DNA of 64,000 nt, taken from contig CAVXVP010000032.1 of NCBI GenBank assembly GCA_963765245.1, forward strand, positions 1,899 to 65,898. The letters run 5' to 3'. This document shows, piece by piece, positions 6,461 to 49,881 of this stretch (positions are counted from its first letter, which is position 1; every line of letters begins with the position of its first letter). The stretch comes from an uncultured Chloroflexia bacterium. Its GTDB lineage: Bacteria > Chloroflexota > Limnocylindria > Limnocylindrales > CSP1-4. The notes under the pieces were generated by a model, which worked only from the letters and a program-made list of their open reading frames with translations, ran no database searches and was not told the origin of the DNA. The position numbers and the translations under genes are program-made.

Positions 6461-6520
6461 GTCGCCAGTATCGGGCCGCCCGCGACCGGCCGGGGCGGTA
6501 GGCCCCGCTAGACTCGACCG

Positions 6521-8808: not shown

Positions 8809-8822
8809 CCTCCCGCCTCGGA

Positions 8823-11209: not shown

Positions 11210-11801
11210 GCCTCGGCCTCCATCGCCTTCTCGAGCGCTGCCGCGGGCAGCATGCAGCCGCGACTTGGCCGTTCCGACCGGGATCCCGAGCGACCGTGCG
11301 ATCTCGGCGACCGGCCGCTCCTCGACGTGGTGGAGGACGAGGATCATCCGGTCCTTCGGCCGCAGGCGGTCGAAGGCGCGCCCGATCGCGTCGTTGTCGA
11401 CGAACTCGTCCATCGCGGTCCGGGCGCGGAGGTCCTGCGGCGGTTCTGGTTGCGGAGTGTCGTCATCCGGGATAGGTCGGCGCGACCGACACCTCGCGGA
11501 GCCGGCCACGGTGGCGACGCGCCATCAACGCGGCGTTCGCGACGATGCGGTTGAGCCAGCCGTCGAAGGCCGCGGGATCGCGAAGGCGGGGAAGCTGCGC
11601 CACGCCGACGACGAGCGCGTCCTGCGTCGCGTCGGCCGCGTCGGCATCGTTGGACAGGATCGACCAGGCGAGACGGTAGCAGCGATCGATCCGGGTATCG
11701 ACGAGCACCTCGAACGCCGCTGCGTCGCCGGTCCGGGCACGCCGAACGAGCGCGTCGTCGGCCGACGTCGCCGAACTCGCCGCTGTCGTCAGCGCATCCA
11801 C
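11206..11801 (-). CDS. ECF-type RNA polymerase sigma-70 family factor (two frame breaks, near 11470 and 11250)
   Basis: Region 2: ALVRRARTGDAAAFEVLVDTRIDRCYRLAWSILSNDADAADATQDALV...LRDPAAFDGWLNRIVANAALMARR. Region 4 is in another frame: AFDRLRPKDRMILVLHHVEERPVAEIARSLGIPVGTAKSRLHAAR. The tail ALEKAMEAEA-stop is in a third frame. The GTG 11801 start is tentative. Confidence 0.7.
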
Positions 11802-12089
11802 GTCACCCTCGGATCGCCGATCGTCCCATTCAAGCCGGGGAGGTAGCCCCTCGGCAAGTCTGTCGGTTATCCAGATGCCGCGGCGAGGGCATTGGTTCGA
11901 TTCCTCCGCGTGCGCCGCCAATAGGGCGATGTACCTATTGCCGCACGGACCCGCCCCACGCCACGATTCACCACGGTCGGGCACGACCTGACGGGGAGCG
12001 GCACGCGAACCTGCACGCGCGCTCGGCGCGGGCCGCTCCCCGACACTCCTCCGGACGGAGCCTCCGTCCGCCGCCCGCCCCGTTCCCAC

Positions 12090-12098
12090 TGCTAGAAT
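12090..12098 (+). promoter_or_regulatory. candidate extended -10 promoter element (TGCTAGAAT) upstream of nuoA
   Basis: TGnTAGAAT lies about 104 nt upstream of the nuoA TTG start, in an otherwise very GC-rich intergenic region. No convincing -35 element is present. Confidence 0.3.
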
Positions 12099-12201
12099 GC
12101 CCACAGGGCCAGACGCCCGTTCCGGGTGCGTCTGCGCGCTCAACGGAGGATCCTCGGGCAAGCGGCGCCGGCCCGTGGCGCGTCGCTCGAAGGGAGTTCG
12201 A

Positions 12202-12558
12202 TTGACCGGCATCTGGTACGTCGTGGGGTTCGCCTTCGCCGGCGTGTCGTTCGTGTTCCTGACGATCGGCGCCGCGTGGCTGGTCTCGCACCGGAACCGC
12301 GGTGACGAGCACAAGGGCCTGCCCTACGAATCGGGGATCGACACGTTCGGCGACACCCACGGCCGGTTCGGACTGTCGTTCTACGTGTACGCCCTGCTGT
12401 TCGTCGCGTTCGACATCGAGGTGGTGTTCATCTACCTCTGGGCGATCGCCTTCGACAGCCTGCTGCTCGGCGGCCTGGTCAGCATGTTGATCTTCGTCGC
12501 GATCCTGCTCCTCGGCCTTGCCTACGCCTGGCGGAAGGGGGCCCTGACATGGCGGTGA
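12202..12558 (+). CDS. nuoA: NADH-quinone oxidoreductase subunit A
   Basis: TTG 12202 is preceded by GAAGGGAG. The 118-aa product has three TM segments and the motif [42 protein letters not shown]. Confidence 0.85.
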
Positions 12559-13286
12559 AGTCCACCACACGAGAGCCCGGCAAGGGCGGCGGCCGCGCGA
12601 CGACCTCGAGCATCCTGCCCGCCGTGACGGATGAGTCGACCGACCTGATCGTCCCGATCGTCGTCCCGAACATGCTCTGGAACGCGGCGGATCCGGAGGC
12701 CTACGACGGCGGCCGACCGACCGACATCGACCACCTCCGCGAGTTCGAGAACAGCGAGCTGATGCGCCGCGACGATGCGCGCTGGGGTGGCGTCCTCGAG
12801 GTCATCCCGACCCGCGCCGACTACGTCCTCGACCTGATCCGGATGAACAGCCTGTGGCCGCTCCTGTCCGGCCTCGCCTGCTGCGCCATCGAGATGATGT
12901 CAGCGGCGACATCGAAGAACGACATGGACCGCTTCGGCATGTTCCCGTTCCGCGCCAGCCCGCGCCAGGCCGACGTGCTCATCGTCGCCGGCACGCTGAC
13001 GACCAAGATGGCCGGCCCGCTGGTCCGCCTCTGGGAGCAGATGCCCGAGCCCAAGTGGTGCGTCGCGATGGGCGACTGCACCTGCTCGGGCGGCCGCTAC
13101 AAGCGCAGCTACTCGACGGTCGAGGGGATCGACCGGGTCATGCCGGTCGACGTCTACGTGCCCGGCTGCCCGCCCCGCCCCGAGGGCCTCATCTACGGGA
13201 TGATGAAGCTCCAGCAGCTGATCAAGGACCGGCGCGGCCACTGGCCCGAGCGGGCGATCGGCCCGACCGTGCCCGAGGACGTCTAG
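12549..13286 (+). CDS. nuoB: NADH-quinone oxidoreductase subunit B (with an N-terminal extension of roughly 90 aa)
   Basis: [17 protein letters not shown]...[31 protein letters not shown]...[15 protein letters not shown]...[13 protein letters not shown]. Intact ORF. Confidence 0.9.
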
Positions 13287-13288
13287 GC

Positions 13289-13837
13289 GTGGATCGCCAT
13301 TTCAAGGCGCGCCTCGAGGCCCGCTTCGCCGCGCAGCTGACCGGCCCGATCCGGCAGCGCCACGACGAGACCGAGATGCGGATCGCGCCCGGCGACGTGG
13401 TCCCGGTCATCACCGCGCTCCACGACGAGCCCGATCTCAACTTCCAGTTCCTGAGCGACCTTGCCGGCGTCGACACGGGCGTGGTCATGCAGGTCGTCTA
13501 CCACCTCTGGAGCGAGACGACACCGGACTGGCTGCGGGTCACCGCCGACGGCCTGTCACGCGACGACCCGCGCGTCCCCTCGGTCACCTTCCTGTGGAAG
13601 GGCGCGGAGTGGATGGAGCGCGAGGCCTACGACATGTTCGGGATCACCTTCGAGGGCAACCGCGACCTGCGCCGCATCTACATGCCGCCCGACTACCAGT
13701 CCTTCCCGCTGCGCAAGGACTTCTACCTGGCCGACGATGCCGCCCGCTCGCCCGGTGGCGGCGTCCGGCCGATGGAACGCACCGCATCCCCGACCAACGC
13801 CCCGGCGACGGCGCTCGTGCGCCGGTCGCCGGACTGA
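13289..13837 (+). CDS. nuoC: NADH-quinone oxidoreductase subunit C
   Basis: GTG start at 13289. LHDEPDLNFQFLSDLAGVD...VVYHLWS...TFLWKGAEWMEREAYDMFGITFEGNRDLRRIYMPPDYQSFPLRKDF. Confidence 0.8.
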   Translation: MDRHFKARLEARFAAQLTGPIRQRHDETEMRIAPGDVVPVITALHDEPDLNFQFLSDLAGVDTGVVMQVVYHLWSETTPDWLRVTADGLSRDDPRVPSVTFLWKGAEWMEREAYDMFGITFEGNRDLRRIYMPPDYQSFPLRKDFYLADDAARSPGGGVRPMERTASPTNAPATALVRRSPD

Positions 13838-13930
13838 CCGGAGCAACCGCTCGATGCCTGTCATCCCGCCCACCAGTCCACCGACGATCCCCGGGTCACG
13901 CTCGATCGCGAGCTGGGCGTCTTCGAGCCC

Positions 13931-15073
13931 GTGCCCGCGTACCCGCCGCGGACCGAGCGCGAGGCCGAGTTCTACACGCTCGGCGACGGCGAGATGTTCG
14001 TCAACATGGGGCCGCAGCACCCCTCGACCCACGGCGTCCTGCGGGTCGTCCTCAAGCTCGACGGCGAGAAGGTCGTCGACCTCGACCCGGTGCTCGGCTA
14101 TCTCCATCGCGGCGTCGAGAAGCTGTGCGAGAACGCCGACTACCACCAGGCGATCTGCTACACCGACCCGCTGGAGTACGTCAGCTCGCTGTTCAACGAG
14201 TGGGCGCCGGTGCTCGCCTTCGAGAAGCTGCTGGACGTCGAGGTGCCGCGGCGCGCCGAGTACATCCGGGTCCTCTCGTTGGAGCTGAACCGGGTCTCCA
14301 GCCACGCCCTCTTCATCGGCTGGATGGCGCTCGACCTGGGCGGCCTGACGCCGATCCTGTGGTCGTTCATCGAGCGTGACGAGATCGTCGACATGCTCGC
14401 GGCGCTGACCGGCCAGCGGATGCTCTTCAACTACTTCCGGATCGGTGGCGTCAACGGCGACCTGAACCACGAGTTCATGAGCCGCCTGGGCGACTGGATG
14501 TCGAAGGCGACCGAGCAGATCGAGTCGGGCAACGCCCTCCTCAACGAGAACGAGATCTTCGTCCGGCGGATGCGCGGCCTGGGGACGATCGACACCGCGA
14601 CCGCCCTGCGGATGGTGATGACCGGCCCGAACCTGCGCGCGACCGGCGTGCCGTTCGACATCCGCCGGGCGCATCCGTACAGCGTCTTCCCCGAGCTCGA
14701 GTTCGACATCCCGACCCGGACCGAGGGCGACTGCCTCGCCCGCTACCTGCTGCGCATCGACGAGATCAAGCAGAGCCTGCGGATCATCGACCAGTGCCTC
14801 CACAAGATGCCCGACGGTCCGGTGCTGGCCAAGCTGCCGCGGCTGCTGCGACCGCGCCCGGGCCGGGCCTACGCCGCGGTCGAGGGCCCGCGCGGCCAGT
14901 ACTCGATCTACGCCATCAGCGACGGCACCGACCAGCCGTTCCGGATGCGGATCCACGACCCGTCGTTCATCCACCTCCAGTCGGTCGGCCTGCTGATGCC
15001 GGGCCACCTGATCGCCGACACGATGGCGATCATGGCCAGCCTCGACCCGATCATGGGCGGCGTCGACAAGTGA
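13931..15073 (+). CDS. nuoD: NADH-quinone oxidoreductase subunit D
   Basis: Intact 380-aa ORF. MFVNMGPQHPSTHGVLRVVLKLDGE...LGYLHRGVEKL...RIGGV...EGPRGQYSIYAISDG...PFRMRIHDPSF. The start (GTG 13931) could be further upstream. Confidence 0.9.
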   Translation: MPAYPPRTEREAEFYTLGDGEMFVNMGPQHPSTHGVLRVVLKLDGEKVVDLDPVLGYLHRGVEKLCENADYHQAICYTDPLEYVSSLFNEWAPVLAFEKLLDVEVPRRAEYIRVLSLELNRVSSHALFIGWMALDLGGLTPILWSFIERDEIVDMLAALTGQRMLFNYFRIGGVNGDLNHEFMSRLGDWMSKATEQIESGNALLNENEIFVRRMRGLGTIDTATALRMVMTGPNLRATGVPFDIRRAHPYSVFPELEFDIPTRTEGDCLARYLLRIDEIKQSLRIIDQCLHKMPDGPVLAKLPRLLRPRPGRAYAAVEGPRGQYSIYAISDGTDQPFRMRIHDPSFIHLQSVGLLMPGHLIADTMAIMASLDPIMGGVDK

Positions 15074-16420
15074 CCGTCGTCGGGAAGAGCTGGAACCGGC
15101 TGACCCTCCCTGGGAAGGTCATCTTCACGGTCGTGCCGCTGCTGGTCGTGGTGACGGTCGTGGCCGTCGCGGCGATCGTGCTGCTCGGTCCGGCGATCGT
15201 CGACATCCTCGCCGCGAACCTGCCGATCCTGCGGTTCGTGATCGCGGTCACGGTCGTGCTCCTGATGACCGTCCCGACCGCCTTCCTGATCATCTACATG
15301 GAGATGAAGATCATCGCCCTGATGAACCTGCGGATCGGGCCCGACCGGGTCGGTCCGTGCGGCTCGCTGCAGTCGGTCGTCCACGGCCTCAAGGTCCTCA
15401 TGAAGGAGGACTTCACCCCGACCGGCGCCGACCCGATCGTCTTCACCTGGGCGCCGGTCGTACCTACCTGGCCAGCGTCATGACCCTGCTGGTCATCCCG
15501 TTCGCGCCCGGGCATCTTCGGCCAGGACCTCAACATCGGGCTGCTCTACTTCTTCGCGATCGGCGGCCTGTCGGTCGTCGGGCTGCTGATGGCCGGCTGG
15601 TCGAGCTACAACAAGTACTCGCTCCTCGGCGGCCTGCGCGCCGCGGCCCAGGTCATCAGCTACGAGATCCCGCTGACGCTGTCGGTCGTCGGGCTGATCC
15701 TGCTGGCCGGGCACGATGAGCCTCAACCAGATCGTGCTCAACCAGAGCGGCTGGTTCACCAACTGGTACGTCTTCCGGCAGCCGCTGGCGGTCCTGATCT
15801 TCTTCATCGCCGCGACGGCCGAGGCGAACCGGACGCCGTTCGACCTGACCGAGGCCGACTCGGAGATCGTCGCCGGCTTCGCGACCGAGTACTCCGGGAT
15901 GCGCTTCGGGTTCTTCTTCTTCGCCGAGTACGTCAACGTGTTCATCATCTCGGCGCTGACGGTGACGCTCTTCTTCGGCGGCTGGAACGCGCCGTTCCCG
16001 TGGCCGTGGCCGGTCGACATCGCCTTCAACCCGGGCAGCCTCGGCATCGGGATGCTGCTCGGCGTGGCGATCATCCCGGTCGTCCTGACGCTCCTCTTCG
16101 CGGCGCCGATCTGGCTGGCGAGCTCGCGGATCAAGGGCTGGCAGGCGCTCATCGGCGGCTTCGTCCTCGCCAACCTGTTCATCGTCGCGGTCGTCGGCGC
16201 GTGGGCCTACATCGGGCTCGACTGGGTCGCCGGGCTGCTCTGGTTCCTGCTCAAGACGTACACGTTCGTGTTCATCTTCGTGTGGATGCGCGGCACGCTG
16301 CCCCGCGTGCGCATCGACCAGCTGATGGACTTCGCCTGGAAGTGGATGCTGCCCGCGTCGCTGCTCAACCTGTTCCTGACCGCCGCCGCCATCGTCGTCG
16401 TCAAGACCGTGAGGCCCTGA
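15070..16420 (+). CDS. nuoH: NADH-quinone oxidoreductase subunit H (three frame breaks near 15462, 15510, 15710)
   Basis: GTG 15070 overlaps the nuoD stop. [26 protein letters not shown]...[16 protein letters not shown]..., then [17 protein letters not shown], then [31 protein letters not shown], then [46 protein letters not shown]...[25 protein letters not shown]. Two of the breaks are an extra G in a ccGGGc context. Confidence 0.85.
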
Positions 16421-17101
16421 TGAGCCTCGTCCCGGGCCTGGGCATCGTCAAGGGGATGGGGCTGACCCTCCGCCGCTTCTTCGAGCCCAAGGTCACCATC
16501 AAGTACCCGGAGGAGAAGCGCCCCGCTCCCGCACAAGTTCCGCGGCCGGCTCCAGCTGCTCTACGACGAGTGGGGCACGATCAAGTGCGAGACCTGCTTC
16601 CAGTGCGCCCAGGCCTGCCCGATCGAGTGCATCGACATGGGCGGCATCGACACGCGCGGCCGCTACCACGTCCACTGGGGCGCGCCCGAGACGTACGGCG
16701 AGCGCCGCGAGGAATCGGCGCTGCGGCGGTCCGGCCGTCCGGTCCCGGACCCCGCGTACGTGCCGTTCGCCGCGGTCGACCTGCGCGAGCTCGACAGGAT
16801 CCTCGACGACTTCGACCACGACCCGGCGGAGATGCTGCCGATCCTCGAGGCGACCCAGACCGCCTATGGCTACCTGCCGGTCGCGGCCCTCAAGCGGATC
16901 AGCCAGCGGACCGGCGCCTGGTACGCGTCGATCTATGGCACGGCCACGTTCTACAGCCACCTCCGGTTCGAGCCGCCCGCCTTGCGCGAGCAGGCCGCCG
17001 CCGTCGACAGCCATCGGCCGCCCGAGGCGACCTACCTGACCGCCCTCGACGCATCGCTGGCGGGCGCGCGCAAGCCGGCCCGCAGGCAGGCGCAGGCGTG
17101 A
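16420..17101 (+). CDS. NuoI-like N-terminal half (one CxxCxxCxxxCP motif) fused to a cysteine-free NuoE-like helical domain (one frame break near 16520)
   Basis: ATG 16420 overlaps the nuoH stop. [61 protein letters not shown] is NuoI-like. It then continues as [53 protein letters not shown], which is NuoE N-domain-like. No second ferredoxin motif is present and the last 154 aa contain no Cys at all. Confidence 0.6.
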
Positions 17102-17105
17102 CCCG

Positions 17106-18431
17106 ATGGTGAACCGCCTCAAGACACCCAAGGGCTGGCCGGCGATCCTGCTCGAGCGGGCCGGCGCCGCGGATCCGACCGACCTCGACGCGGCGGTGCG
17201 GGCCGGCGCGTTCGACGGCCTGCGACGCGTCGTCCGCAACTACGGGGCGACCGCGACGATCGCCACGATCGCGTCGTCCGGGTTGCGCGGCCGGGGCGGT
17301 GCCGGCTTCCCGGCCGCGGCCAAGTGGCGGCTGGCGGCCGGAACGCAGGCGCCGCGCCGCTACGTCGTGGTCAACGGCTACGGCGCGGACCCGGCGACCC
17401 GCACGGACGAATTCCTCCTCGAGAGCGACCCGTTCGCTGTCATCGAGGGCGCGGCGATCGCCGCGTTCGCCATCGGCGCGGGCGAGGTCATCATCGCGGT
17501 CCGCTCGGATGCCACGACCGCGATCGCGCGCCTCGGGTCGGCCATCGGCTCCGCCACCGAGGCGGGCTTCATCGGCTTCGACATCCTCGGCTCGGCGATG
17601 GACATCACGGTCACGGTCCGGCCGGTCCAGGGCGCCTACATGCTCGGCGAGGAGACCGTCCTGCTCAAGGCCCTCGCGGGCAAGCGCGGCCAGCCCGAGC
17701 AGCGGCCGCCGCACCCGGCCGAGAGCGGCCTGGACGGCATGCCGACCCTCGTCCACAACGTCCAGACCCTCGCCGCCGTCCCGTGGATCATCCGCAACGG
17801 CGCCGCGGCCTTCGCCCAGATCGGCAGCCCGGACAGCCCGGGCACGATCCTGGTCCAGGTCCGGACGCCCTCCGGCGACGGCATCGCGGAGGTCCCGCTC
17901 GGGACGCCGCTGCGCGAGGTCATCGGGCTTGGCGGGCGATTGCCTGCCAGCCGCTCGATCAAGGCCGTCCTGGTCGGCGGCCCGTCCGGTGGCCTGTTGC
18001 CGCCCGAGATGCTCGACACGCCGTACGACTTCGACGCGTTGCGTGCCGCGGGCGCGCACATCGGCTCGGGCTCGGTGGTCGTCGCCGACGATCGCGCCTG
18101 CGTCGTCGATCTCGCGCGGCTGCTGACCCGGTTCTGCGCCGGCGAGGCATGCGGCAAGACGATCCCGTGCCGGATCGGGACGCGCCGGCTGGTCGAGATC
18201 GCCGATCGCGTCGTCGAGGGCCGGCCAAGACCGACAGACATGACGCTGCTCGAGGACCTGTCGGCCGATATCGTGGCGTCCGCCCTGTGCGACCACGAGC
18301 GGCTGACGACCCTCCCGCTGTCCAGCGGGATGCGATACTTCCGGTCCGAGCTGGACGAGCACATCCTGCACAGTGCCTGCCCTGCCGGTGTCTGCCATCC
18401 GATCGCGGTGGCGGCCGGTGCGACCCGATAA
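17106..18431 (+). CDS. nuoF: NuoF-like NADH dehydrogenase flavoprotein subunit (divergent)
   Basis: Intact 441-aa [72 protein letters not shown], and a cluster region [12 protein letters not shown]...ALCDHE. Confidence 0.8.
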
Positions 18432-18439
18432 GGCGACCC

Positions 18440-21052
18440 ATGGCTGACCTGATCACGCGCCCCGACAGCCGCCTCGCGACCGAGCGGGAGGCACCTGCCG
18501 AATCGCTGCCCGAGCGCCTCATCGAGACGCAGTCGCCGCAGCGGCCGCAGGTCTCGCCGCGCATCCGGATCGAGGTCGACGGGCGGGTCGTCGAGGGCTT
18601 CGAGGGCCAGACGATCCTCGAGGTCTGCCGCGACAACGGGATCGAGATCCCGACCCTCTGCTACGAGCCGAAGCTCCCCGGCTTCGGGGCGTGCCGGATG
18701 TGCGTCGTCGAGGTCGAGGGCGAGGAGCACCCGCCGATCTCCTGCTCGCGCACGTGCGAGCCGGAGATGAAGGTCCAGACCCAGACCGAGGAGCTGCGCC
18801 GGCTGCGCCGGACGAACCTCGAGCTGATCTTCTCCGACCACAACGCCTACTGCCTGCCGCCGTGCCAGAACAAGTGCCCCAGCCACATCGACATCCCGGG
18901 CTTCCTCAAGGCCAACGCGGAGACGGACTGGCGCGAGAGCACGCGCATCTTCAAGCGCACGATCCCGTTCCCCAGCGTGCTCGGGCGGGTCTGCCCGGCG
19001 CCGTGCGAGGAGCACTGCCGGCGCGACGAGGTCGACGAGGCGATCGCCATCCGCGACAGCCACCGCTACGCCGGCGACCAGGTCCTCAAGGCGATGCTCG
19101 ACGAGGGCGAGGACCCGCCGATCCCGTTCGAGCGCCAGGCGCCGTCCGGCCGGCGCGCCGCGGTCATCGGCTCCGGGCCGGCCGGGATGGCCGCCGCGTT
19201 CTACCTGCTCCTCGCGGGTCACGACGTGACCGTCTTCGAGCGCGACCCGTCGCCCGGCGGCATGCTCCGCTACGGGATCCCGCAGTACCGCCTGCCCAAG
19301 GTCGAGGTCCTCGAAGCCGAATACGAGTCGATCACCCGGCTCGGCGGCAAGATCGTCTGCAACGCCGGTCTCGGCGTCGACTTCACGCTCGACGACCTGA
19401 CCTACCAGGGCTTCGATTCGGTCGTCGTCGCGATCGGCTGCTACGACACCAACAAGCTCGGCATCCCGGGCGAGGACGCCGCCGAGGTCCTCGACGGCCT
19501 CGAGTACCTGCGCACGGCGACGCTCGGCCTGCCGTACCCCGGTCACGCCGGCAAGCGGGTCGTGGTCATCGGCGGCGGCTTCACCTCGATGGACTGCTCG
19601 CGGACGTCGATCCGCCAGGGCGCCAAGGAAGTGACGCTCGTCTATCGCCGCGACATGAAGGACATGCCGGCCGCGAACGAGGTCCACGAGGCGATCGAGG
19701 AAGGCGTCACCGCGATCTTCCAGGCCGGACCGGTCCGGGTCGTCACCGACAAGAAGGGCAACGTCACCGGCGTCGAGTTCATCCGGATGGCGCCGGGCGC
19801 ACCGGACGCGTCGGGCAGGCGCCGCCCGGAACCGGCGCCCGGCACGGAATTCACGATCCCCTGCGACCGCGTGCTGCTGGCCATCGGCCAGGGCCCGGAC
19901 CTGACCTGGATCGGACCGGGGTCGGACGGGGTCGAGGCGACCAAGCAGAACCGGCTCAAGGCCGACGCCGTGACGTTCGAGACCGGCCGACCCGGCGTGT
20001 TCGGGACGGGCGACGTGCGGATCGGCGCGGCGACCGTGGTCGCGGCCGTCGCCGAGGGACGCCGCGCGGCCTACGCGGTCGATGCCTTCCTCAAGGGCAT
20101 GGACCTGACCGCGATCCGGACCCGCCAGACGCTGGCCGAGCCGCAGCCCGAGTTCCTGTCGATCGTGCCGTTCACCAGCGAGGCCAAGACGCCGCGCTAC
20201 CGGATGACCGCCCTCCACGCCGAGCAGCGCAACGACTCGTACATCGAGTACGAGCTGCCCTACACGCGCGAGGACGCCGTCGCCGAATCGACGCGCTGCC
20301 TGCAGTGCACCTGCGAGGCGATCGGCTTCTGCGACCTGCGCCGGCTCGGCATCGAGTACGGCACGACGCTGCCCACGCTCGAGCCGGAGAACCACCAGGG
20401 CGCCGGCTTCCGGAGCGTGACCGAGAACCGCTTCACCGGCGTCAACCACGACTACATCCGGGACGACTCGCACGCCTTCATCCTGCGCGAGCCGTCGCGC
20501 TGCATCGACTGCGGCCGGTGCGCCAACGTCTGCGCCGAGGTGGTCGGCGCCGCCTGCTACGACTTCATGCGGATCGGCTTCGATACGCTGGTCACGACAC
20601 CGTTGGACATGAGCCTCAACGACACGCCGTGCGTGTCGTGCGGACGCTGCGCCGAGACGTGTCCGACCGGGGCCCTGATGCCCAAGCCGCGCGTCCTCCA
20701 GAAGTACGAGGTCGACGAGAGCCGCTGCATCCTGTGCGGGATCTGCGTCGATGCCTGCCCCTACGACGCCCTGCGCGACGGCGCGGACATCGAGCTGTCG
20801 CACACGAGCCGCGACGAGCCGATGATCGACCTGATGGCGATCGCGGCGATCGACCGCGAGACCGAGGTGACCTACATCCGCCGCGAGCGCGACTGGGCGA
20901 CCCGCGCCGCGGCCGACGGACGGCTGATCGACACGTCGCGGATGCTGCCGATGCTGCCGCCGACCGTCACCGGCATCCCAGACAACGGACACGCGCACGG
21001 CAACGGCCATGGCCACGGCGGGACGGCCGTCGTCCCGACACACCACGAGTAG
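18440..21052 (+). CDS. 870-aa iron-sulfur flavoprotein in the NuoG position: NuoG-type 2Fe-2S N-domain + GltD-like FAD/NAD(P)H oxidoreductase + ferredoxin-type 4Fe-4S motifs + NuoI-like C-terminal half
   Basis: Intact ORF, ATG 18440. It reads in order:
- [51 protein letters not shown]...ISCSRTC
- [19 protein letters not shown]...[12 protein letters not shown]
- [47 protein letters not shown]
- [16 protein letters not shown]
- [23 protein letters not shown]
- [12 protein letters not shown]...[16 protein letters not shown]
- [24 protein letters not shown]
- a His-rich tail [12 protein letters not shown]. Confidence 0.75.
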
Positions 21053-21061
21053 GCCGACGAC

Positions 21062-21655
21062 GTGATGCGTCGCCTGATCCCGATCCTCCTGGCCGTGACG
21101 TTGCTGGGCATCGTCACCGGCATCGCCGTGATCATGCTGCTGTTCCTCGGCCAGGACTGGGGCGATGCCCTGTTCTGGCTGTTCGCGGCGGTGATGATCG
21201 GTTCGGCGTTCCTGGTCGTGACGATGCGCGACATCATCCGCTGCGGGCTGGCGATGATCGTCTGCTTCGGGTCGCTGGCCGGGATCTACGCGATCATCGG
21301 GGCGCCGCTGCTGGCCGCCGCGCAGGTCATCGTCTACATCGGGGCGATCAGCGTCCTGATCCTGTTCGCGATCATGCTGACCCAGACCAAGGACGCTCCG
21401 AGCCGGCTGGTCTTCCAGACGCAGGCGGTCCCCGCGGCGATCGCCTCGATCGTCATCGCGGTGGTCCTCGCCCTGGCGATCGGCGCGACCGATTGGGGCG
21501 AGGCGGCCAAGCGCGTGCGGCTGACCGCCGAGGCGATGTCGAGCGTGCTGTTCAACAGCTTCGTGCTGCCGTTCGAGATCGTCAGCGTGCTGCTGCTCGC
21601 GGCCGTCATCGGTGGCGTCTACCTCGCCAAGCGCGAACCGGGCGGGCCGTCGTGA
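21062..21655 (+). CDS. nuoJ: NADH-quinone oxidoreductase subunit J
   Basis: Intact 197-aa polytopic [25 protein letters not shown]...[22 protein letters not shown]. The start is GTG 21062 or ATG 21065. Confidence 0.85.
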
Positions 21656-21990
21656 GCGACTCGCTCGACGCCTACCTGGTCCTGTCCGGGCTTCTCTTCG
21701 CGATCGGCACGTTCGGGTTCCTCGCCCGGCGCAACGCGATCAGCATGCTGATGTCGATCGAGCTGATGCTCAACGGGGTCAACCTCGCGATCGTCGCGTT
21801 CGGGTCGTTCGGGACCGCTGCGGCCGCGGCCGCCGACCGGGCAGCGTCCGTGGCGGAGGGCTCGGTCATCGCACTGATGGTCATGGCCGTCGCGGCCGCC
21901 GAGGCGACGGTCGGGCTGGCCATCGTCATCGCCATCTACCGCAACAAGAAGACACCGCTGGTCGACGAATACGACGCTATGCGCCAATGA
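21652..21990 (+). CDS. nuoK: NADH-quinone oxidoreductase subunit K
   Basis: GTG 21652 overlaps the nuoJ stop. [42 protein letters not shown]...[21 protein letters not shown]. Confidence 0.85.
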
Positions 21991-22141
21991 GCGTCATGGA
22001 ACCGCCTTGCGCGCCGTCGGGACGAGCCGAGGGCAAGGCGCACCCGAGCATGCGAGCGAGCGCACCTCAAGGTGCGTGAGCGAACACGCGCAGGGTGCAA
22101 CGCGGCCATCGGCCGTCCGACGGCGCGCCTGATGACCGCCA

Positions 22142-24116
22142 ATGAACCCTGAGGCGCTGATCCCGGCGCTCGTGGTATTGCCGATGCTGGGGTTCCTGGT
22201 GACGGCGGTCGTCGGGCGCCGGCTCGGGAAGCAGGCGCACTGGGTGCCGGTGATCGCGATCTTCGCGGTCTGGGTCGCCGCGATGATGCTCGTCGTCAAC
22301 GTGCTGAGCGGCGCCGCGCCGCTGCTGCCGGGCTCCGAGGACTCGCACGGCTACGTCGTCGACTGGTTCACCTGGATCCCGGCCGACAACTTCGTGGTCA
22401 ACGTCGGCTTCGTCGTCGACGCGCTGACGGCAAGCCTGCTGATCGTGGTGACGACGATCGGCCTGCTCGTCCACGTCTACTCGATCGGCTACATGAGCCA
22501 CGACCCGGGGTACTGGCGCTTCTTCGCCTACCTCAACCTGTTCATGTTCTCGATGCTGCTGCTGGTCCTCGCCGGCAACTTCCTGGTCGTGTTCGTGGCA
22601 TGGGAGCTGGTCGGCCTGTGCAGCTATCTGCTGATCGGCTTCTGGTACCGCAAGCGCTCGGCGGCCCTCGCGGCCAAGAAGGCGTTCATCGTCAACCGGG
22701 TCGGCGACGTCGGTTTCATCCTCGGGATCATGCTGATCTTCGTCAGCCTCGGCACGCTCGACATCCGCGAGGTCATCGCGCGGATCGGCGAGCTCGATGC
22801 CGACGACGATCACGCTCATCGCCCTGCTGGTCTTCGCCGGCGCGATGGGCAAGAGCGCCCAGTTCCCGCTGCACGTCTGGCTCCCCGACGCCATGGAAGG
22901 CCCGACACCGGTCTCCGCCCTCATCCACGCCGCGACGATGGTCAACGCCGGCGTCTACCTCGTCGCCCGGACCAATCCGATCTTCGCCTACGCACCGTCG
23001 GCGCTCGTGGTGGTCGCCGCGATCGGCATCTTCACGGCCATCCTCGCCGCGTCGATCGCCATGACCCAGACCGACATCAAGCGCGTCCTCGCCTATTCGA
23101 CCCTCAGCCAGCTCGGCTACATGTTCGCCGCGCTCGGCGTCGGGGCGTGGACCGCGGCGATCTTCCACCTGATGACTCACGGCTTCTTCAAGGGCCTGCT
23201 CTTCCTCGGTTCGGGCTCGGTCATCCACTCGGTCCACGAGGAACAGGACATGCGCCGGATGGGCGGCCTGGCGGAGAAGATCCCGATCACCTACGTGACG
23301 ATGCTCATCGGCTCGCTGGCCATCGCCGGGATCCCGCCGCTCGCCGGCTTCTTCTCGAAGGACGAGATCCTGGGCAAATCGCTCAAGCTCGGGTTCGCCT
23401 GGGTCTGGCTGATCGGCTTCATCGTGGCCGGCCTGACCGCGTTCTACATGTTCCGGTTGATGGGCCTGACGTTCTGGGGCTCGTTCCGCGGTCCGCGCGA
23501 GATCTGGGACAAGATCCACGAGTCGCCGCCGATCATGACCATCCCGCTGATCCTGCTGGCGATCCCGTCCGTCTTCCTCGGGATGTACCTCGGCCTGCCG
23601 CTCGGAGACAGCCGGATCACCCACTGGCTCGAACCGATCTTCGCCGAAGGCGAGGCCGTCCTCCATGGCGGGGCCGCGGAGCCCGCCTACCAGCTGTTCG
23701 GCATCGATGGCGTGCTGATCATCGCCAGCGTCACGATCGCCACGATCGGGATGATCCTCGCCTGGCGGCTCTTCGGCGTCCAGCTCGGTCCCATCCGCAT
23801 GCCGTCCCGACCGGAGCGCGTCCGCGAGCTGACGGCGCGTGCGCCGTTCCTTTATCGCGCCTCGCTCAACAAGTGGTGGTTCGACGACCTGTACCACCTG
23901 CTGTTCATGGTCATCGGCGGGCGGATCGCGGCGGCCATCTGGTGGTTCGACCGTGAGGTCATCGATGGCACCGTCAATGCCATCGGGACCGGGACCATCG
24001 ACGCCGGCCGCGGGCTGCGCCAGGTCCAGACCGGTCGGGTCCAGAACTACGCCCTGGGCATCGCCATCGGCCTGATCGTGATGGCCGGGTCGTACCTGCT
24101 GCTTGCGGGCCGCTGA
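22142..24116 (+). CDS. nuoL: NADH-quinone oxidoreductase subunit L (one frame break near 22795)
   Basis: ATG start at 22142. [42 protein letters not shown], then in another frame [43 protein letters not shown]...[16 protein letters not shown]...[18 protein letters not shown]. Confidence 0.85.
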
Positions 24117-24118
24117 CG

Positions 24119-25767
24119 ATGACAGTCGACAGCATCCCGCTCCTGACGATCATCATCTTCCTGCCCCTCCTCGGCGCGCTGGCGGTCGCCATCGCGCCGG
24201 CCACGGCGGCACGACCGCTCGCGCTCGGGTTCGCACTCGCGACGTGGGTCGTCTCGCTCTTCATGCTCATCGGCTACCTGCCGCGGCCCGGCTTCCAGTT
24301 CGTCGAGACGGTCGACTGGATCCCGATCTTCGGCATCCAGTACAAGCTCGGCGCCGACGGGCTGGCGGTCGCCCTGGTGGTCCTGACCACGACCCTGTCG
24401 TGGATCTCGATCCTTGCCAGCTTCAAGCCGATCCAGACGCGGATCAAGGAATACATGATCTCGTTCCTCATCCTCGAGGTCGGCCTGATCGGCGTCTTTC
24501 TCGCGCTCGACACGTTCCTGTTCTACATCTTCTGGGAGATCGTCCTCGTCCCGATGTACCTCATCATCGGGATCTGGGGTGGCGCGAACCGGATCTACGC
24601 CACGATCAAGTTCGTCCTGTACACGCTCGTCGGGTCGCTGCTCATGCTCGTGGCGATCCTGGCGACCGCCTACGCGTACGCGGCTGGCCACGACGGCTCG
24701 TGGGTCGGTGCCTTCGACTTCGAGGTCCTGCGCGCGTATGCCGGGACCGGTGGGTTCGCCGACGGCCTACAGCTCCTCGCCTTCGTGGCGTTCTTCCTGG
24801 CGTTCGCCATCAAGGTCCCGATGTTCCCGTTCCACACCTGGTTGCCCGACGCGCACACGGAGGCACCGACGGCGGGCTCGGTGATGCTGGCGGCGATCAT
24901 GCTCAAGCTCGGCGCCTACGGGTTCATCCGGTTCGCGGTCCCGCTCTATCCGATCGGCGGCCGAGACCTTCGCGCCGGTGATCATCGTGCTGTCGCTGAT
25001 CGCGATCATCTACGGCGCGATCGTGGCCCTCGTCCAGCCCGACCTGAAGCGGCTCGTCGCCTACTCCTCGGTCAGCCACATGGGCTTCGTGACGCTCGGC
25101 ATCTTCGTGTTCACGGAGCAGGGCCTCCAGGGCGCGATCCTGCAGATGATCAACCACGGTCTGATCACTGGCGCGCTCTTCCTGCTGTGTCGGCATCATC
25201 TATGAACGGACTCACGACCGGACCATCGCCAAGATGGGCGGGCTGGCGGCGCGGACCCCGGTCTGGGCCGCGCTCTTCGGCTTCTTCGTCTTCGCCTCGG
25301 CAGGTCTGCCGGGGCTGTCCGGGTTCGTCGGCGAGTTCCTGGTGCTGCTCGGGACGTTCCAGGCAAACCCGTACGCGGCCGCGGTCGCCACGTTCGTGAT
25401 GATCCTGGCCGCCGGCTACCTGCTGTACATGTACGGGCGGGTCGTGTTCGGCGAGGTCTCCGACTTCCTGGCCGGACTCGGGGACCACCTGACCGATATG
25501 ACCCCGGTCGAGATCCTGACCCTGGCACCGCTCGGCGCGCTGGTCGTCATCTTCGGCCTTCAGCCTGGCCTGCTGCTCGACCTCGTCAACGGAACGGTCA
25601 GCGAGACCCTCCGCTCGGTCCAGCCGTCGGCACCGATCGCCATCCCGACCACGATCGTGGTCGGCCTCCTGGCGATCCTGGCCGTGCTCGTCCTGGCTCG
25701 CATCGCCTACGTGCTGATCCGGCAGAGCCGCGGCTCGCTCGAACCCGAGACCGGGGTCGCCCATTGA
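24119..25767 (+). CDS. nuoM: NADH-quinone oxidoreductase subunit M (two frame breaks near 24955 and 25187)
   Basis: ATG start at 24119. [21 protein letters not shown]...[45 protein letters not shown], then [28 protein letters not shown]...[14 protein letters not shown], then [19 protein letters not shown]...[14 protein letters not shown] in the other frames. Confidence 0.85.
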
Positions 25768-27257
25768 GCTGGCAGGACTTCGTCACGATCAGCCCGCTGG
25801 TGGCGGGCATCCTGACAGCGGCCGCGATCCTCGTCGTCGACCTGGTCCGCCCGGGACGGGCGGCGGTCGCAGTCGGCGTCTCGCTCACCGGCCTCGTGAT
25901 CACGGCCATCCTGGCGATGATCGTGGGGGCGGGGGCCACGCCGGTCACGGCGTTCGGGGGCGCGTACAAGGTCGATGACCTGACCACCTTCCTCGATCTG
26001 TTGTTCGTGGCGGCCATCGCACTGACCATCGCCTTCGGTCCCGACTACCTGATCCCGCGCGGCCTGCCGGTCGCCGAGTTCGCCGCGATCCTCGTCTTCG
26101 CGATGACCGGCGCGATGCTGATCTCGGCATCGGGCGACCTGTTGATGCTGTTCCTCGGGCTCGAGCTGATGGTCCTGCCCGGCTACCTGCTGGCCGCCTT
26201 TCACAAGTCCGACGCCTATTCCACCGAAGGCGCGATCAAGTACTTCCTGCTGGGCTCGTTCAGTTCGGCGATCTTCCTCTTCGGCATCGCCTTCATCTGG
26301 GGCCTGACCGGCACGACGAAGCTCGACGCGATCAACGAGACCCTGGCCGCGATCGTGGCCGGCACCGCACCGCTGTCACCTGGATTGGCGATGGGCCTCG
26401 CGTTCCTGACCACCGGCGTGGCGTTCAAGATCGCGGCGGTGCCGTTCCACTACTGGACGCCGGACGCGTACCAGGGCTCGCCGACGCCGATCACCGGCTA
26501 TCTCTCGGTCGTGCCGAAGGTCGGTGCCTTCGCGCTGATCCTGCGACTGTTCGTCGAGGGTCTCGGGCCGCTGGCCGACTGGTGGATGCCGGTGATGATC
26601 GTGCTGGCGACCGCGACGATGACCCTCGGCAACCTGGTGGCGCTGACCCAGGACAACGTCAAGCGGATGCTCGCCTACAGCTCGATCGCGCACACCGGCT
26701 ACATGCTGGTGGGCCTGGCAGCGTGGGCGGGCGACCCGCAGGACCGGCTGGACGGCATCGATGCCCTGCTGTTCTACGCGGTCGCCTACGCCTTCATGAA
26801 CCTGGGTGCCTTCGCCGTCATCGCCGCGCTCCAGAAACGCTCCGGGGTCACCTCCAGCCTCGGGACGTTCGCGGGCTTGGGCCGTCGCGAGCCGCTGCTG
26901 GGCATCCTGATGACGCTCTTCCTGCTGTCGCTGATCGGCATCCCGCCGACGGCCGGCTTCTTTGCCAAGGCGAACATCATCCTGGCCGCGGTCGAGGCGG
27001 GCGGGCCGCTGACGATCCTGGCAGTCATCACGGTGCTCAACGCCGCGGTCGCCGCGTTCTACTACCTGCGGGTCGTCGTCTACATGTTCATGCGCGAGCC
27101 GGCGAGCGACGCCCCGGCGCTCCGCCACGGCGCGCTGATGTGGGCGGGGCTGGCGGCCGCGTCCGCACTGACGATCCTGCTGGGCCTGTTCCCGACCGGG
27201 CTGCTCGATGCGGCCGGGCGGGCCGCCGAAGCGCTCGTCCCGGCTCTCCCCAACTAG
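25764..27257 (+). CDS. nuoN: NADH-quinone oxidoreductase subunit N
   Basis: Intact 497-aa ORF. TTG 25764 overlaps the nuoM stop. GLELMVLPGYLLAAF...KYFLLGSFSSAIFLFG...AFKIAAVPFHYWTPDAYQGSPTPITGYLSVVPK...KRMLAYSSIAHTGYMLVG. Confidence 0.9.
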   Translation: MSWQDFVTISPLVAGILTAAAILVVDLVRPGRAAVAVGVSLTGLVITAILAMIVGAGATPVTAFGGAYKVDDLTTFLDLLFVAAIALTIAFGPDYLIPRGLPVAEFAAILVFAMTGAMLISASGDLLMLFLGLELMVLPGYLLAAFHKSDAYSTEGAIKYFLLGSFSSAIFLFGIAFIWGLTGTTKLDAINETLAAIVAGTAPLSPGLAMGLAFLTTGVAFKIAAVPFHYWTPDAYQGSPTPITGYLSVVPKVGAFALILRLFVEGLGPLADWWMPVMIVLATATMTLGNLVALTQDNVKRMLAYSSIAHTGYMLVGLAAWAGDPQDRLDGIDALLFYAVAYAFMNLGAFAVIAALQKRSGVTSSLGTFAGLGRREPLLGILMTLFLLSLIGIPPTAGFFAKANIILAAVEAGGPLTILAVITVLNAAVAAFYYLRVVVYMFMREPASDAPALRHGALMWAGLAAASALTILLGLFPTGLLDAAGRAAEALVPALPN

Positions 27258-27974
27258 GCGCAGTTCACCGGCTTCGGATGTCGGGTTGGCCTCGTCGTGC
27301 GGGGCGGCCTCCTGCGACAGCGGCTCGGCGATGAGCTGGAGCTTGGGCTGGGTGCCCCGACCCTCGGACGTCTGGAGCCAGAGCTGCTCGTTGTCGGCCA
27401 CGATGGCCGGGCCGACCGCGGTGTCATACGGGACATGACGCTTCACCTTGTTGACGACGTACAGGAAGCGCTGGTTGTCGTTGGTCCAGACCTCGACGAT
27501 CATCCCGAGCATCTTCTTGCCGTTCGACACTTTGGACGCATCAAGGATCGGCAGGAACATGCCCGTCCTGGCATGGGCGTAGATGTACGTGGCGCGGCCC
27601 TGGCCCGGCTGGCCGAGCCGGTCGTCGGTGAGATACATGGCGACGTTGCAGGCTGGGTACCCCGCGGACCCGGAGATGACCGGGAGGTCGATCTTGAGCG
27701 CCGCGATGCGCACCCGCGTCGCGACCCGCCCCGGCGGGAACGACGCGATCGGCGGCGGTGGCCCGCCCGAACCGAGCGGCGGCAGCGTGATCAACGGGCT
27801 GGGGGTCGCCGAGACCGCCGCGTCGGGGCTGGCCGTTGCCGCCGGCGTGGTGACCGGATCGGCGGAGGCGGTGGTCGTGAGCGACAGCACGCCGGCCGCC
27901 AGGAAGGTGACGCCGAGCGCAGTCAGAAGTGCTGGAGCGATTCGCGTGCGGATCCGATCCGCGAGGTGGCGCAT
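27254..27974 (-). CDS. sortase-like (class E/F-like) membrane-anchored protein with Ser at the expected catalytic Cys position; 3' end uncertain
   Basis: ATG 27974. TM segment IAPALLTALGVTFLAAGVLSL, a Pro/Thr/Ala linker, then RVRIAALKIDLPVISG...ATYIYAHARTGMFLPIL...GMIVEVWTNDNQRFLYVVNKVKRHV...EQLWLQTSEG...KLQLIAEPL. As sequenced, the frame runs on antisense into nuoN. A 1-nt shift gives ...KPVNCA-stop at 27254. Confidence 0.5.
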
Positions 27975-28044
27975 GGGACCGGCATGGTAGCAGCGGTCCT
28001 TTCGAGGCGCCGTGGACCGCTCGTACTGGTACCCTCCGCGCGAC

Positions 28045-28278
28045 ATGAAAGCACGCCTGTCGATCGTCGCCGGCCTGATCGTCGGAGTCGCCGTCGCAGG
28101 GATGTTGCTCGGGGGACTCCTCGCGCTCGCCCCTGAACCGCCCGCGCTCGCCACGCCGACCCAACCGCTCGCGATCGAAACGCCGAGTCCATCGCCCAAG
28201 GCGTCGATCCCGCCGAGCGCTTCGCCCAGCCCGTCGGCCGGCAAGTCGATCCTGCCCGGAGTCGACGTCACAACTTGA
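28045..28278 (+). CDS. small membrane-anchored Pro/Ser-rich protein (hypothetical)
   Basis: ATG 28045. MKARLSIVAGLIVGVAVAGMLLGGLLALAP is followed by a P/S/A-rich tail. The stop overlaps the next gene's TTG. Weak coding evidence. Confidence 0.35.
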   Translation: MKARLSIVAGLIVGVAVAGMLLGGLLALAPEPPALATPTQPLAIETPSPSPKASIPPSASPSPSAGKSILPGVDVTT

Positions 28279-29180: not shown

Positions 29181-29186
29181 GGACGG

Positions 29187-37811: not shown

Positions 37812-37875
37812 TTGACATCCGACGCTCGACACTCGTAGCATCAACGGCGATTGATATAAACCGTGGTTGATGTGC
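37812..37875 (+). promoter_or_regulatory. sigma-70-like promoter (TTGACA-18-TAGCAT) with overlapping inverted repeats upstream of arsR-pgsA-ino1
   Basis: TTGACA at 37812-37817, an 18-nt spacer, TAGCAT at 37836-37841. CATCAAC (37839-37845) and GTTGATG (37866-37872) form a 7-bp inverted repeat, and ATTGAT lies between them. The region is locally AT-rich. Confidence 0.45.
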
Positions 37876-37912
37876 CACGACGCACCACCCCAGAACCCGG
37901 AGTCAGCACGCC

Positions 37913-38248: not shown

Positions 38249-38251
38249 CCG

Positions 38252-49837: not shown

Positions 49838-49881
49838 ACGGACAACCCGATGGACGACCCGGCCCCCGGATCTCGCGCGGG

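Follow-up and report, generated by a model that had tools for sequence, protein, structure and literature searches.

Gene content of the locus

The window analysed here is a 64,000-nucleotide stretch of DNA from an uncultured Chloroflexia bacterium of the Limnocylindria (GenBank assembly GCA_963765245.1, contig CAVXVP010000032.1), and our subject is its operon for respiratory complex I, in which the genes for the flavoprotein input module stand in an unusual position. Complex I is a textbook case of modular evolution. As the window has a G+C content of about 70%, lists of open reading frames (ORFs) are of no use by themselves, and genes were called from frame plots of the G+C content at third codon positions (GC3) together with three-frame translations. 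This gave 13 genes on the plus strand, from 12202 to 27257, in the order nuoA-B-C-D-H-[I-N::E']-F-G'-J-K-L-M-N, where I-N::E' (hereafter I/E') and G' are fusion proteins. NuoA, B, C, D, J, K and N were confirmed by Pfam, and NuoH, L and M by tblastn with the proteins of relatives, in agreement with the order given by the original prediction, which had been made from the letters and their ORFs. The features are as follows.

12202..12558, + strand: nuoA (TTG start); Pfam Oxidored_q4, E = 1e-31; 79% identical to NuoA of the related locus L001
12549..13286, + strand: nuoB, with the N2-cluster cysteines; Pfam Oxidored_q6; CC...C...GCPP in the translation
13289..13837, + strand: nuoC (GTG start); Pfam Complex1_30kDa, E = 4e-38
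13854..15073, + strand: nuoD; Pfam Complex1_49kDa, E = 6e-85; C/D junction aligned with seven relatives
15070..16420, + strand: nuoH; three-frame translation and DNA alignment with L009, L021, L012 and L005
16420..17101, + strand: I-N::E' fusion, 226 aa; Pfam, PDB search, NCBIfam
17106..18431, + strand: F, a NuoF-sized homologue of the Bfu B subunit with a flavin mononucleotide (FMN) domain and an N3-type cluster region, 441 aa; Pfam, PDB match 9bov_B
18440..21052, + strand: G', 870 aa; Pfam Fer2_4, Fer4_20, Pyr_redox_2 (GltD-like) and C-terminal Fer4; PDB matches 9bov_A and 8oh5_C
about 20696..20959, + strand: C-terminal half of NuoI at the C-terminal end of G', with the second CxxCxxCxxxCP motif and a NuoI-specific tail; PDB search, NCBIfam, tblastn
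21062..21655, + strand: nuoJ; Pfam Oxidored_q3
21652..21990, + strand: nuoK, 112 aa; Pfam Oxidored_q2; tblastn alignment length 112 against a 105-aa query
21991..22141, no strand: palindromic repeat in the K/L spacer, 151 bp; predicted hairpin, BLAST copies in relatives
22142..24116, + strand: nuoL; three-frame translation, tblastn, DNA alignment with relatives
24119..25767, + strand: nuoM; three-frame translation, tblastn, DNA alignment with relatives
25764..27257, + strand: nuoN (TTG start); Pfam Proton_antipo_M, E = 1e-70

The tight coupling that had been proposed, with overlaps at D/H, H/I, J/K and M/N and near-abutting L/M, proved exact at base level. The D/H junction is a GTGA overlap (15070-15073), H/I a TGATG with a 1-nt overlap at 16420, J/K a GTGA (21652-21655) and M/N a TTGA (25764-25767), while nuoL and nuoM are separated by 2 nt. 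The complex I core subunits A, B, C, D, H, I, J, K, L, M and N are all encoded together (Pfam, tblastn, TIGR01971), NuoI solely as two halves. Nothing about the membrane arm and Q-module (NuoA, B, C, D, H, J, K, L, M, N) is out of the ordinary. In the translations, NuoB carries 'LACCAIEM', 'GDCTCSGG' and 'VPGCPP', which we take to be the ligands of the N2 cluster, and NuoD carries 'GPQHPSTHGVLR' and 'LGYLHRGVEK', presumably the conserved N-terminal motifs of the family. A scan for promoters and terminators found no clear excess over shuffled controls (one promoter-like site against 0.9 expected and six terminator-like sites against 3.4 expected). NuoK has 112 residues against 105 in relatives, with a seven-residue Ala-rich insertion between the two conserved glutamate-bearing helices.

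NuoI is split by the cassette

The three input genes are flanked by the two halves of a single subunit. Residues 9-83 of I/E' align in a PDB search with the first half of NuoI/TYKY/Nqo9, as far as the first CxxCxxCxxxCP motif and including it. This half, with its one motif, ends at about 16678 and is followed at about 16769-16975 by a part resembling the N-terminal helices of NuoE/NfnC; by itself, I/E' matches only positions 1-63 of the NCBIfam profile TIGR01971. At the far end of the cassette, the final approximately 120 residues in G' have their counterpart in the C-terminal half of NuoI/TYKY (TYKY residues 152-200 of 222; 8qby_I residues 93-147; E about 1e-11). When the halves are joined they match TIGR01971 as a single stretch covering profile positions 1-116 of 121, with 106 bits (cut-off 113 bits). 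Conversely, an intact NuoI matches the window by tblastn at 16444-16651 and 20630-20830. In the canonical operons of Microlunatus and Krumholzibacteriia, which are weak matches, both query pieces land on nuoI, and in the locus L239 they match adjacent, slightly overlapping parts of one nuoI gene. That the cassette was inserted inside nuoI, producing two in-frame fusions, appears well supported by these comparisons.

The cysteine motifs give the same picture of two halves. Four CxxCxxCxxxC motifs are present in the window, one in I/E' and three in G', and all are invariant in both phyla that share the arrangement. The two-cluster domain of NfnA/StnC accounts for two of those in G', which leaves one orphan motif each in I/E' and G'. 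We infer that NuoI is probably rebuilt from the two chains.

The original prediction had noted that without 16.6-21.0 kb the order nuoABCDHIJKLMN remains. That order is indeed recovered when the halves are joined; the deletion as drawn, however, leaves no intact nuoI, because the 3' half of the gene is fused to the end of G'. As it stands the operon differs from the 11-subunit type, which is nuoABCDHIJKLMN without flavoprotein input genes, in having three input genes between the nuoI halves.

The fusions also bear on whether the locus might encode two enzymes, one complex I-like with 11 subunits and the other a soluble transhydrogenase of the Nfn kind, with genes that are merely nested. Homologous soluble-type clusters without nuo genes do exist (L153-L158), with the same C-B-A gene order as the cassette. 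Here, however, the operon holds no intact nuoI, each NuoI half is covalently joined to a cassette protein, and each fused protein bears an orphan half-ferredoxin motif that needs a partner. The FdhF-like domain, which forms the tetramer in the soluble StnC-containing enzyme (PMC10482914), is deleted, and the arrangement is fixed in three lineages. We consider two separate enzymes very improbable.

The cassette derives from a transhydrogenase operon

G' carries a [2Fe-2S] domain (18563-18790), a GltD-like region with two [4Fe-4S] clusters and sites for flavin adenine dinucleotide (FAD) and NAD(P)H (18854-20062), a CxxCxC..C motif and a two-motif ferredoxin (20483-20680). Its residues 42-773 align with residues 4-699 of NfnA from the Caldicellulosiruptor NfnABC complex (9bov_A, E = 8e-159), and it also matches StnC (8oh5_C, E = 3e-138) and the archaeal NfnA (9N5U). 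The alignment with NfnA stops at about residue 700 of 1178, and the C-terminal half of NuoI stands in place of the FdhF-like domain. G' has FAD and NADPH-type motifs (GSGPAG; GGGFTSMD...YRR) that coincide in the alignment with those of NfnA from C. saccharolyticus (Csac), and its cysteines are invariant in both phyla. G' has the features of an Nfn-Bfu/Stn A subunit, namely the [2Fe-2S] domain, the GltD-like FAD/NADPH domain with two [4Fe-4S] clusters and the NuoG/HydA-type chain. It lacks both the C-terminal FdhF-like domain of that subunit (tetramer core, clusters C1/C2) and the molybdopterin-like domain of NuoG.

The other two proteins follow the same pattern. The best PDB match of F is NfnB (9bov_B residues 104-526, 355 bits), with HydB at 349 and StnB at 344 bits, against 268 bits for M. 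smegmatis NuoF and 243 bits for Thermus Nqo1 as true NuoF proteins. F is without the N- and C-terminal cluster domains of BfuB (Pfam detects no Fer4 and no thioredoxin-like domain), and in the window it has Thr for the second N3 cysteine and NGYGADPA for NADEGDPG. Residues 117-185 of I/E' align with the NuoE-like N-terminal helical part, best with NfnC (9bov_C residues 19-87). In Pfam, E' covers only positions 2-63 of 145 in the 2Fe-2S_thioredx profile and has no [2Fe-2S] domain, and I/E' shows a weak single 4Fe-4S motif. The NuoF and NuoG NCBIfam scores of the cassette proteins are under the curated cut-offs. The window encodes neither a canonical N-module (NuoE with N1a, NuoF with a four-Cys N3, molybdopterin-like NuoG) nor a Bfu core (BfuB complete with the extra cluster/Zn domains at its N and C termini, plus BfuC with C1, forming the FMN-B1-C1 flavobicluster). 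E', F and G' derive from a Bfu-type Nfn/Stn transhydrogenase operon (nfnC-B-A / stnA-B-C), not from nuoEFG.

NuoE-, NuoF- and NuoG-type Pfam domains in the cassette proteins are what a rearranged 14-gene operon would also show, its nuoEFG having shifted from between nuoD and nuoH to after nuoH. Such a rearrangement is hardly credible: G' contains an FAD domain of the GltD type and matches NfnA/StnC, not NuoG, from end to end, Bfu B subunits outscore every NuoF as matches to F, NuoI is divided and joined to cassette proteins on either side, and the homologues from Thermoleophilia have the complete BfuB and BfuC architecture.

A single event can explain both fusions if a segment running from the vicinity of the nfnC 5' end to just before the FdhF-like domain of nfnA entered the inter-motif loop of nuoI. 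The proposal that an input cassette had been inserted into a nuoABCDHIJKLMN-type operon was borne out, since the flanking pieces are the two NuoI halves and the cassette is nearer to NfnABC/StnABC than to NuoEFG. The recipient operon would have had 11 genes, rather than 14 with a later loss of nuoEFG. The suggested comparison of GC3 and codon usage between 16.6-21.0 kb and its flanks gave no indication of a recent transfer: GC3 is 0.92-1.00 in every gene, cassette included, and the higher total G+C of the cassette arises at codon positions 1 and 2 (soluble versus membrane proteins). The insertion appears ancient because it is common to two Limnocylindria subgroups and Thermoleophilia, and because GC3 is uniform.

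Distribution and stepwise reduction

G' has approximately 8000 database matches, the best 120 of which are 84-93% identical and come from metagenome-assembled genomes (MAGs) of Chloroflexota / Candidatus Limnocylindrales; relatives of G' are encoded at no fewer than 560 loci of species-representative genomes. In subgroup 1, the closest Limnocylindria, all 82 fetched loci are colinear with the window (59 span the whole order), and the same holds for 76/76 loci from another Limnocylindria subgroup (subgroup 2) and for 66/70 from Thermoleophilia (Actinomycetota), where protein identity to the window's lineage is 30-52%. A profile-free search with I/E' among 1.8 billion representative proteins led to the latter two groups. 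The recurrence of the gene order is far above chance. Comparison of synteny had been named as a check, together with the case that would speak against an inserted cassette, the same order as a norm with ordinary NuoE, NuoG and NuoI sequences. The order is the norm in these lineages; the sequences are not ordinary.

The three groups differ in how much of the Bfu core they keep. In Thermoleophilia, I/E has a full NuoE-like [2Fe-2S] domain and the 641-aa BfuB has an N-terminal thioredoxin-like domain, a C-terminal two-cluster domain and all canonical FMN, NADH and N3 motifs. In subgroup 2, I/E' (265-284 aa) has a full-length thioredoxin-like domain that scores far below that of Thermoleophilia and, in the protein P0174, is without the second cysteine pair; F is short. 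In the window's subgroup the cluster domain of E' is wholly lost. Living lineages hold a graded series from the full Bfu core through degenerate domains to loss.

Annotation may obscure these proteins. In one source, automatic annotation labels the Thermoleophilia I/E protein just 'NADH-quinone oxidoreductase subunit E', and G' relatives appear as 'FAD-dependent oxidoreductase' or 'formate dehydrogenase major subunit'. With such uninformative labels NuoI may appear absent, and complex I could be scored wrongly when metabolism is reconstructed from these MAGs.

Two side observations concern the same groups. The Thermoleophilia MAGs with the split-nuoI operon (L083-L152; e.g. L084 10001-12681) include many named 'MFD' as well as peat (palsa, bog) and anaerobic membrane bioreactor (AnMBR) samples. 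Subgroup 2 has an extra gene between G' and nuoJ that the window does not have (L162 14793-16172; also L177 and L207); its product, of 460 aa, is similar to the 39-kDa accessory subunit (NDUFA9) of the mitochondrial complex and contains an NAD(P)H-binding domain of the SDR/NmrA/epimerase kind.

Single-base indels in the window

Eight 1-nt indels, which the original prediction had not noticed, break the frames of nuoD, nuoH, nuoI-N, nuoL and nuoM. Seven were placed by alignment with the four closest relatives and the eighth, in nuoD, by alignment of the C/D junction with seven relatives. The nuoD ATG at 13854 is out of frame through a 1-nt deletion near 13867. In nuoH a base is missing at 15461 and one is added at each of 15510 and 15709, and a stop codon lies in frame at 15481; single insertions lie in nuoI-N (16525) and nuoL (22800), and two in nuoM (24954 and 25187).

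Taken at face value, five broken frames and an in-frame stop could mean that the frameshifts are real and the operon a decaying cluster of pseudogenes. The indels are, however, missing from near-identical short-read DNA and RNA contigs at no fewer than five of the six sites that these span. Illumina contigs from soil and rhizosphere (at least 92% alike) have the opposite state at 15461, 15507/15510, 15709, 16515-16517 and 24953/4, and metatranscriptome contigs have it at 15461 and 22799/22800. Unrelated flanking genes are frameshifted at a similar rate: the HPPK gene (5890-6457, minus strand), a Peptidase_S51 gene (5133-5826) and a Methyltransf_28/NDUFAF7-like gene (7614-8814) are each spread over two to four frames compared with the related loci L001 and L002, a sign that the window comes from a modestly accurate long-read assembly. 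GC3 remains at its high value across the broken genes. Only a minority of relatives have broken genes; these are almost exclusively contig_N-named 'MFD' MAGs in which different genes are hit, whereas MAGs with short-read-assembler contig names have the operon intact. The eight indels are most likely long-read assembly errors rather than pseudogenization, and we give genuine decay of the operon little credence.

Predicted electron input

In the mechanism that we propose, a Bfu-type transhydrogenase operon would have been inserted long ago into the loop between the cluster-binding motifs of NuoI, joining the NuoI N-terminal half to the NfnC-like helical domain (I/E') and the NfnA-like protein to the NuoI C-terminal half, which would replace the FdhF-like domain of NfnA/StnC (G'). 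In a two-cluster ferredoxin fold each [4Fe-4S] cluster is liganded by both motifs, so that I/E' and G' would have to meet to build N6a and N6b. The two halves, folded together around these clusters, would staple the flavoprotein module E'/F/G' onto NuoB, NuoD and NuoH. NAD(P)H would reduce the FAD in the GltD-like domain of G', the donor being suggested by a GGGxxxxD...YRR motif common with the NADPH-using Csac NfnA, and electrons would travel through the Fe-S clusters of G' to those of the reassembled NuoI and then via N2 in NuoB to quinone, with proton pumping. F could be a second entry or exit for NAD(H), or a mere relay; its FMN loops are kept, the site is remodelled and three cysteines are left for the cluster. 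In StnC the FAD feeds electrons down the cluster chain, while the FdhF-like domain is an off-pathway branch (C1/C2) that has been called an evolutionary remnant (PMC10482914). The domain bearing that branch is here replaced by the C-terminal half of NuoI, whose clusters would lead to N2 and quinone.

The criterion for bifurcation is a BfuBC core with C1 and B1 around the FMN (Schut et al. 2022, PMC9304861; Li et al. 2025). Because the [2Fe-2S] cluster C1 of NfnC and the accessory domains of BfuB have been lost, the window's enzyme should be non-bifurcating, and its Thermoleophilia counterpart might be bifurcating.

The state of F leaves room for a simpler enzyme, a proton-pumping NADPH:quinone oxidoreductase with the GltD-like FAD as sole input and the Limnocylindria F as scaffold or Fe-S relay. 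In a motif census of 74 + 56 + 59 homologues, the second N3 cysteine was Thr, Ser or Ala in all 133 Limnocylindria F proteins, 74 of subgroup 1 (where it was Thr or Ser) and 59 of subgroup 2, and NADEGDPG had become an invariant NGYGADPA in the window's subgroup and an NlMgADP-type motif in subgroup 2; Y222 is replaced by Ala and F294 by His. With the N3 cysteine lost and the acidic motif changed, NADH oxidation at F is uncertain. G' is also better conserved than F between the window and L001 (87% against 68% identity), with all its FAD/NADPH motifs kept. On the other side, F of the window's subgroup retains the Gly-rich loop 1, the equivalents of F/Y159, K164 and E274 and part of loop 3, which contact NADH in Csac NfnB (PMC11829005). 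The replaced residues are themselves invariant, which points to purifying selection on a remodelled working site, and F is present in every genome examined. An enzyme fed by NADPH alone is conceivable, though we rather doubt it.

We hold it likely that the locus is the lineage-typical complex I of Limnocylindria, with a transhydrogenase-derived input module inserted in nuoI and with frames probably broken by assembly errors. In soil metatranscriptomes, the stretch from nuoA to nuoN is covered by contigs (92% alike or more) that cross the I/E'-F, G'-J and L-M junctions, which suggests that the operon is in use. Several points weigh against this account. Contigs from RNA runs possibly include carried-over DNA, and the short-read contigs used for comparison belong to closely related strains rather than the same genome, so that a private, real frameshift remains conceivable. 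BLAST can alternatively align the first motif of an intact NuoI with motif b of G' (C731...), which makes the pairing of motifs ambiguous; the motif count being even, I/E' would have to share clusters with G' under either pairing. AlphaFold2 gave low predicted local distance difference test (pLDDT) scores, 34 for the joined NuoI halves as a single sequence and 36.7 for G' with 34 close homologues. The 11-gene ancestor is a reconstruction rather than a demonstrated state, the N3 cysteine and NADEGDPG motif of F are altered as described, and substrate specificity, quinone type and proton pumping are predictions from sequence. The architecture itself is well supported; the choice of substrate and the mechanism are what it would imply.

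More speculatively, the split of NuoI may make a soluble Bfu-type transhydrogenase the input arm of complex I, with a branched Fe-S junction that connects the NADPH/FAD, NAD(H)/FMN and quinone sites. The full core of Thermoleophilia might then let a proton-pumping complex I link NADPH, NAD(H), ferredoxin and quinone by con- or bifurcation; the reduced enzyme of Limnocylindria, an abundant class in soil, would pump protons in an NADPH-linked (or dual NADPH/NADH) form with built-in transhydrogenase capacity. We put this forward only tentatively.

The interest of the system lies mainly in how complex I evolved and in how abundant soil bacteria that are still uncultured gain their energy. The gene structure itself, with a single insertion into nuoI and a fusion on each side, records that a flavoprotein input module was recruited a second time and independently. 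Among the uncultured bacteria most widespread in soil, some may supply NADPH, besides NADH, to a proton-pumping respiratory chain, and the Thermoleophilia form is a candidate for a bifurcating or confurcating complex I, so far only predicted as 'Nuo-Bfu'.

Comparison with known systems

With the canonical 14-subunit complex I (NuoA-N/Nqo1-14) the window shares the eleven core subunits, the N2 cysteines of NuoB, the three antiporter-like subunits and an FMN-type subunit with a [2Fe-2S]/[4Fe-4S] chain leading to NuoI. It differs in having no nuoEFG between nuoD and nuoH, no N1a domain and no molybdopterin-like domain of NuoG, in the extra GltD-like FAD/NAD(P)H domain with its two clusters, in a NuoI made of two polypeptides fused to the input module, and in an N3 site with only three cysteines. 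The 11-subunit complex I-like enzymes (NDH-1 and Fpo-type; PMC3144371, PMC4758237) have the order A-B-C-D-H-I-J-K-L-M-N that is obtained here once the cassette is removed and the nuoI halves are joined. They dock a separate partner (ferredoxin or FpoF), whereas the flavoprotein module of the window is encoded in the operon and covalently joined to NuoI.

The Bfu-type transhydrogenases NfnABC (C. saccharolyticus 9BOV/9BP5, PMC11829005; archaeal 9N5U, PMC12018979) and StnABC (S. ovata 8OH5/8OH9, PMC10482914) likewise have three genes in C-B-A order; G' corresponds to NfnA/StnC over about 700 residues, F to NfnB/StnB and E' to the N-terminal part of NfnC/StnA. In contrast to these, the form in the window is predicted to be membrane-bound via its NuoI fusions, with the FdhF-like domain swapped for the NuoI C-terminal half. 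The C1 [2Fe-2S] domain and the N- and C-terminal domains of BfuB are gone, and with them the bifurcating core (PMC9304861, PMC11829005).

Schut et al. (2022) predicted membrane-bound 'Nuo-Bfu' and 'Mbh-Bfu' complexes (PMC9304861). Nuo-Bfu is a 14-subunit A-N complex of Deferribacteres, Proteobacteria, Planctomycetes and Nitrospirae in which BfuABC replaces NuoEFG (PMC9304861). As in the window, NuoEFG of a proton-pumping complex gives way to a Bfu-type module whose genes sit mid-operon. The text of PMC9304861, however, is silent on a GltD/NfnA-type A subunit in Nuo-Bfu, on a split NuoI and on Actinobacteria/Thermoleophilia, and the window's F lacks the ferredoxin domain that its BfuB survey demanded. 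The window falls outside the definition of Nuo-Bfu in that its cassette lies after nuoH and inside nuoI and its A subunit is of the NfnA/GltD type. The mbx-like operons of Thermotoga and proteobacteria, in which a GltD-related flavoprotein substitutes for NuoI (Degli Esposti 2015, PMC4758237), also place a GltD-type NAD(P)(H) flavoprotein on a complex I-related membrane module at the position of NuoI. Those operons are Mbx/Mrp-like and have NuoI replaced, while the window keeps NuoI as halves, together with the full Nuo membrane arm and a NuoF-like subunit. No open-access paper or bioRxiv preprint returned by our searches describes a split NuoI or a complex I module derived from Nfn/Stn, and the architecture is apparently undescribed.

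The K/L repeat and the neighbourhood of the operon

The gap between nuoK and nuoL, which had been reported as 151 bp and unusual, is exactly of that length (21991-22141), but spacers comparable to it are present in 11 of 74 other measured loci of the lineage. K/L spacers in relatives range from a 4-nt overlap, found in 31 other loci, to 241 nt; those alignable with the hairpin of the window are 145-241 nt long. The 151 bp are predicted to fold as one long hairpin (-87.4 kcal/mol). BLAST finds copies of the repeat on both strands and at a second site, at about 6420-6680 of the locus in 14 relatives, which we take to be the nuoD/nuoH junction. Its occurrence on both strands and at two sites points to a mobile palindromic (REP/MITE-like) repeat that is not specific to the operon. 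Copies are about 130-150 nt long (L009 6486-6615 and 13564-13662; also L016, L004, L012 and L061), with a single one in the 64-kb window. Rfam returned nothing at E <= 0.1 within 8.5-28.5 kb, repeat included.

Upstream of the operon, as in relatives, lies the NDUFAF7-like methyltransferase gene (PF02636, a complex I assembly factor family; 7614-8814). The distance from it to nuoA is about 200-350 nt in L001 and L002; the window has approximately 3.4 kb of extra DNA (8815-12201), which holds a minus-strand ORF (10409-11524) with a sigma-70 region 4 domain. Downstream (27282-30119), a sortase-like gene (minus strand), a trehalose-phosphate phosphatase gene (plus strand, inverted relative to L001) and a CorA gene (minus strand) show a synteny unlike that of L001, and the AhpC/redoxin gene of L001 and L002 has no match in the window.

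A second nuo cluster at 38-44 kb, considered on account of a 417-aa ORF, was rejected, as the Pfam matches there are to CDP-alcohol phosphatidyltransferase, inositol-1-phosphate synthase, acyltransferases and a GT4 glycosyltransferase. In the region 37871-44303 the gene for an ArsR-type regulator precedes those for CDP-alcohol phosphatidyltransferase, myo-inositol-1-phosphate synthase, two homologues of lipid A-type acyltransferases (one of which has a PHP-associated domain) and the GT4 glycosyltransferase; the whole looks like a cluster for the synthesis of phosphatidylinositol-(mannoside)-type lipids. On the minus strand at 44186-49936 there is a single unbroken ORF of approximately 1900 aa with a coding-type GC3 of 0.90.

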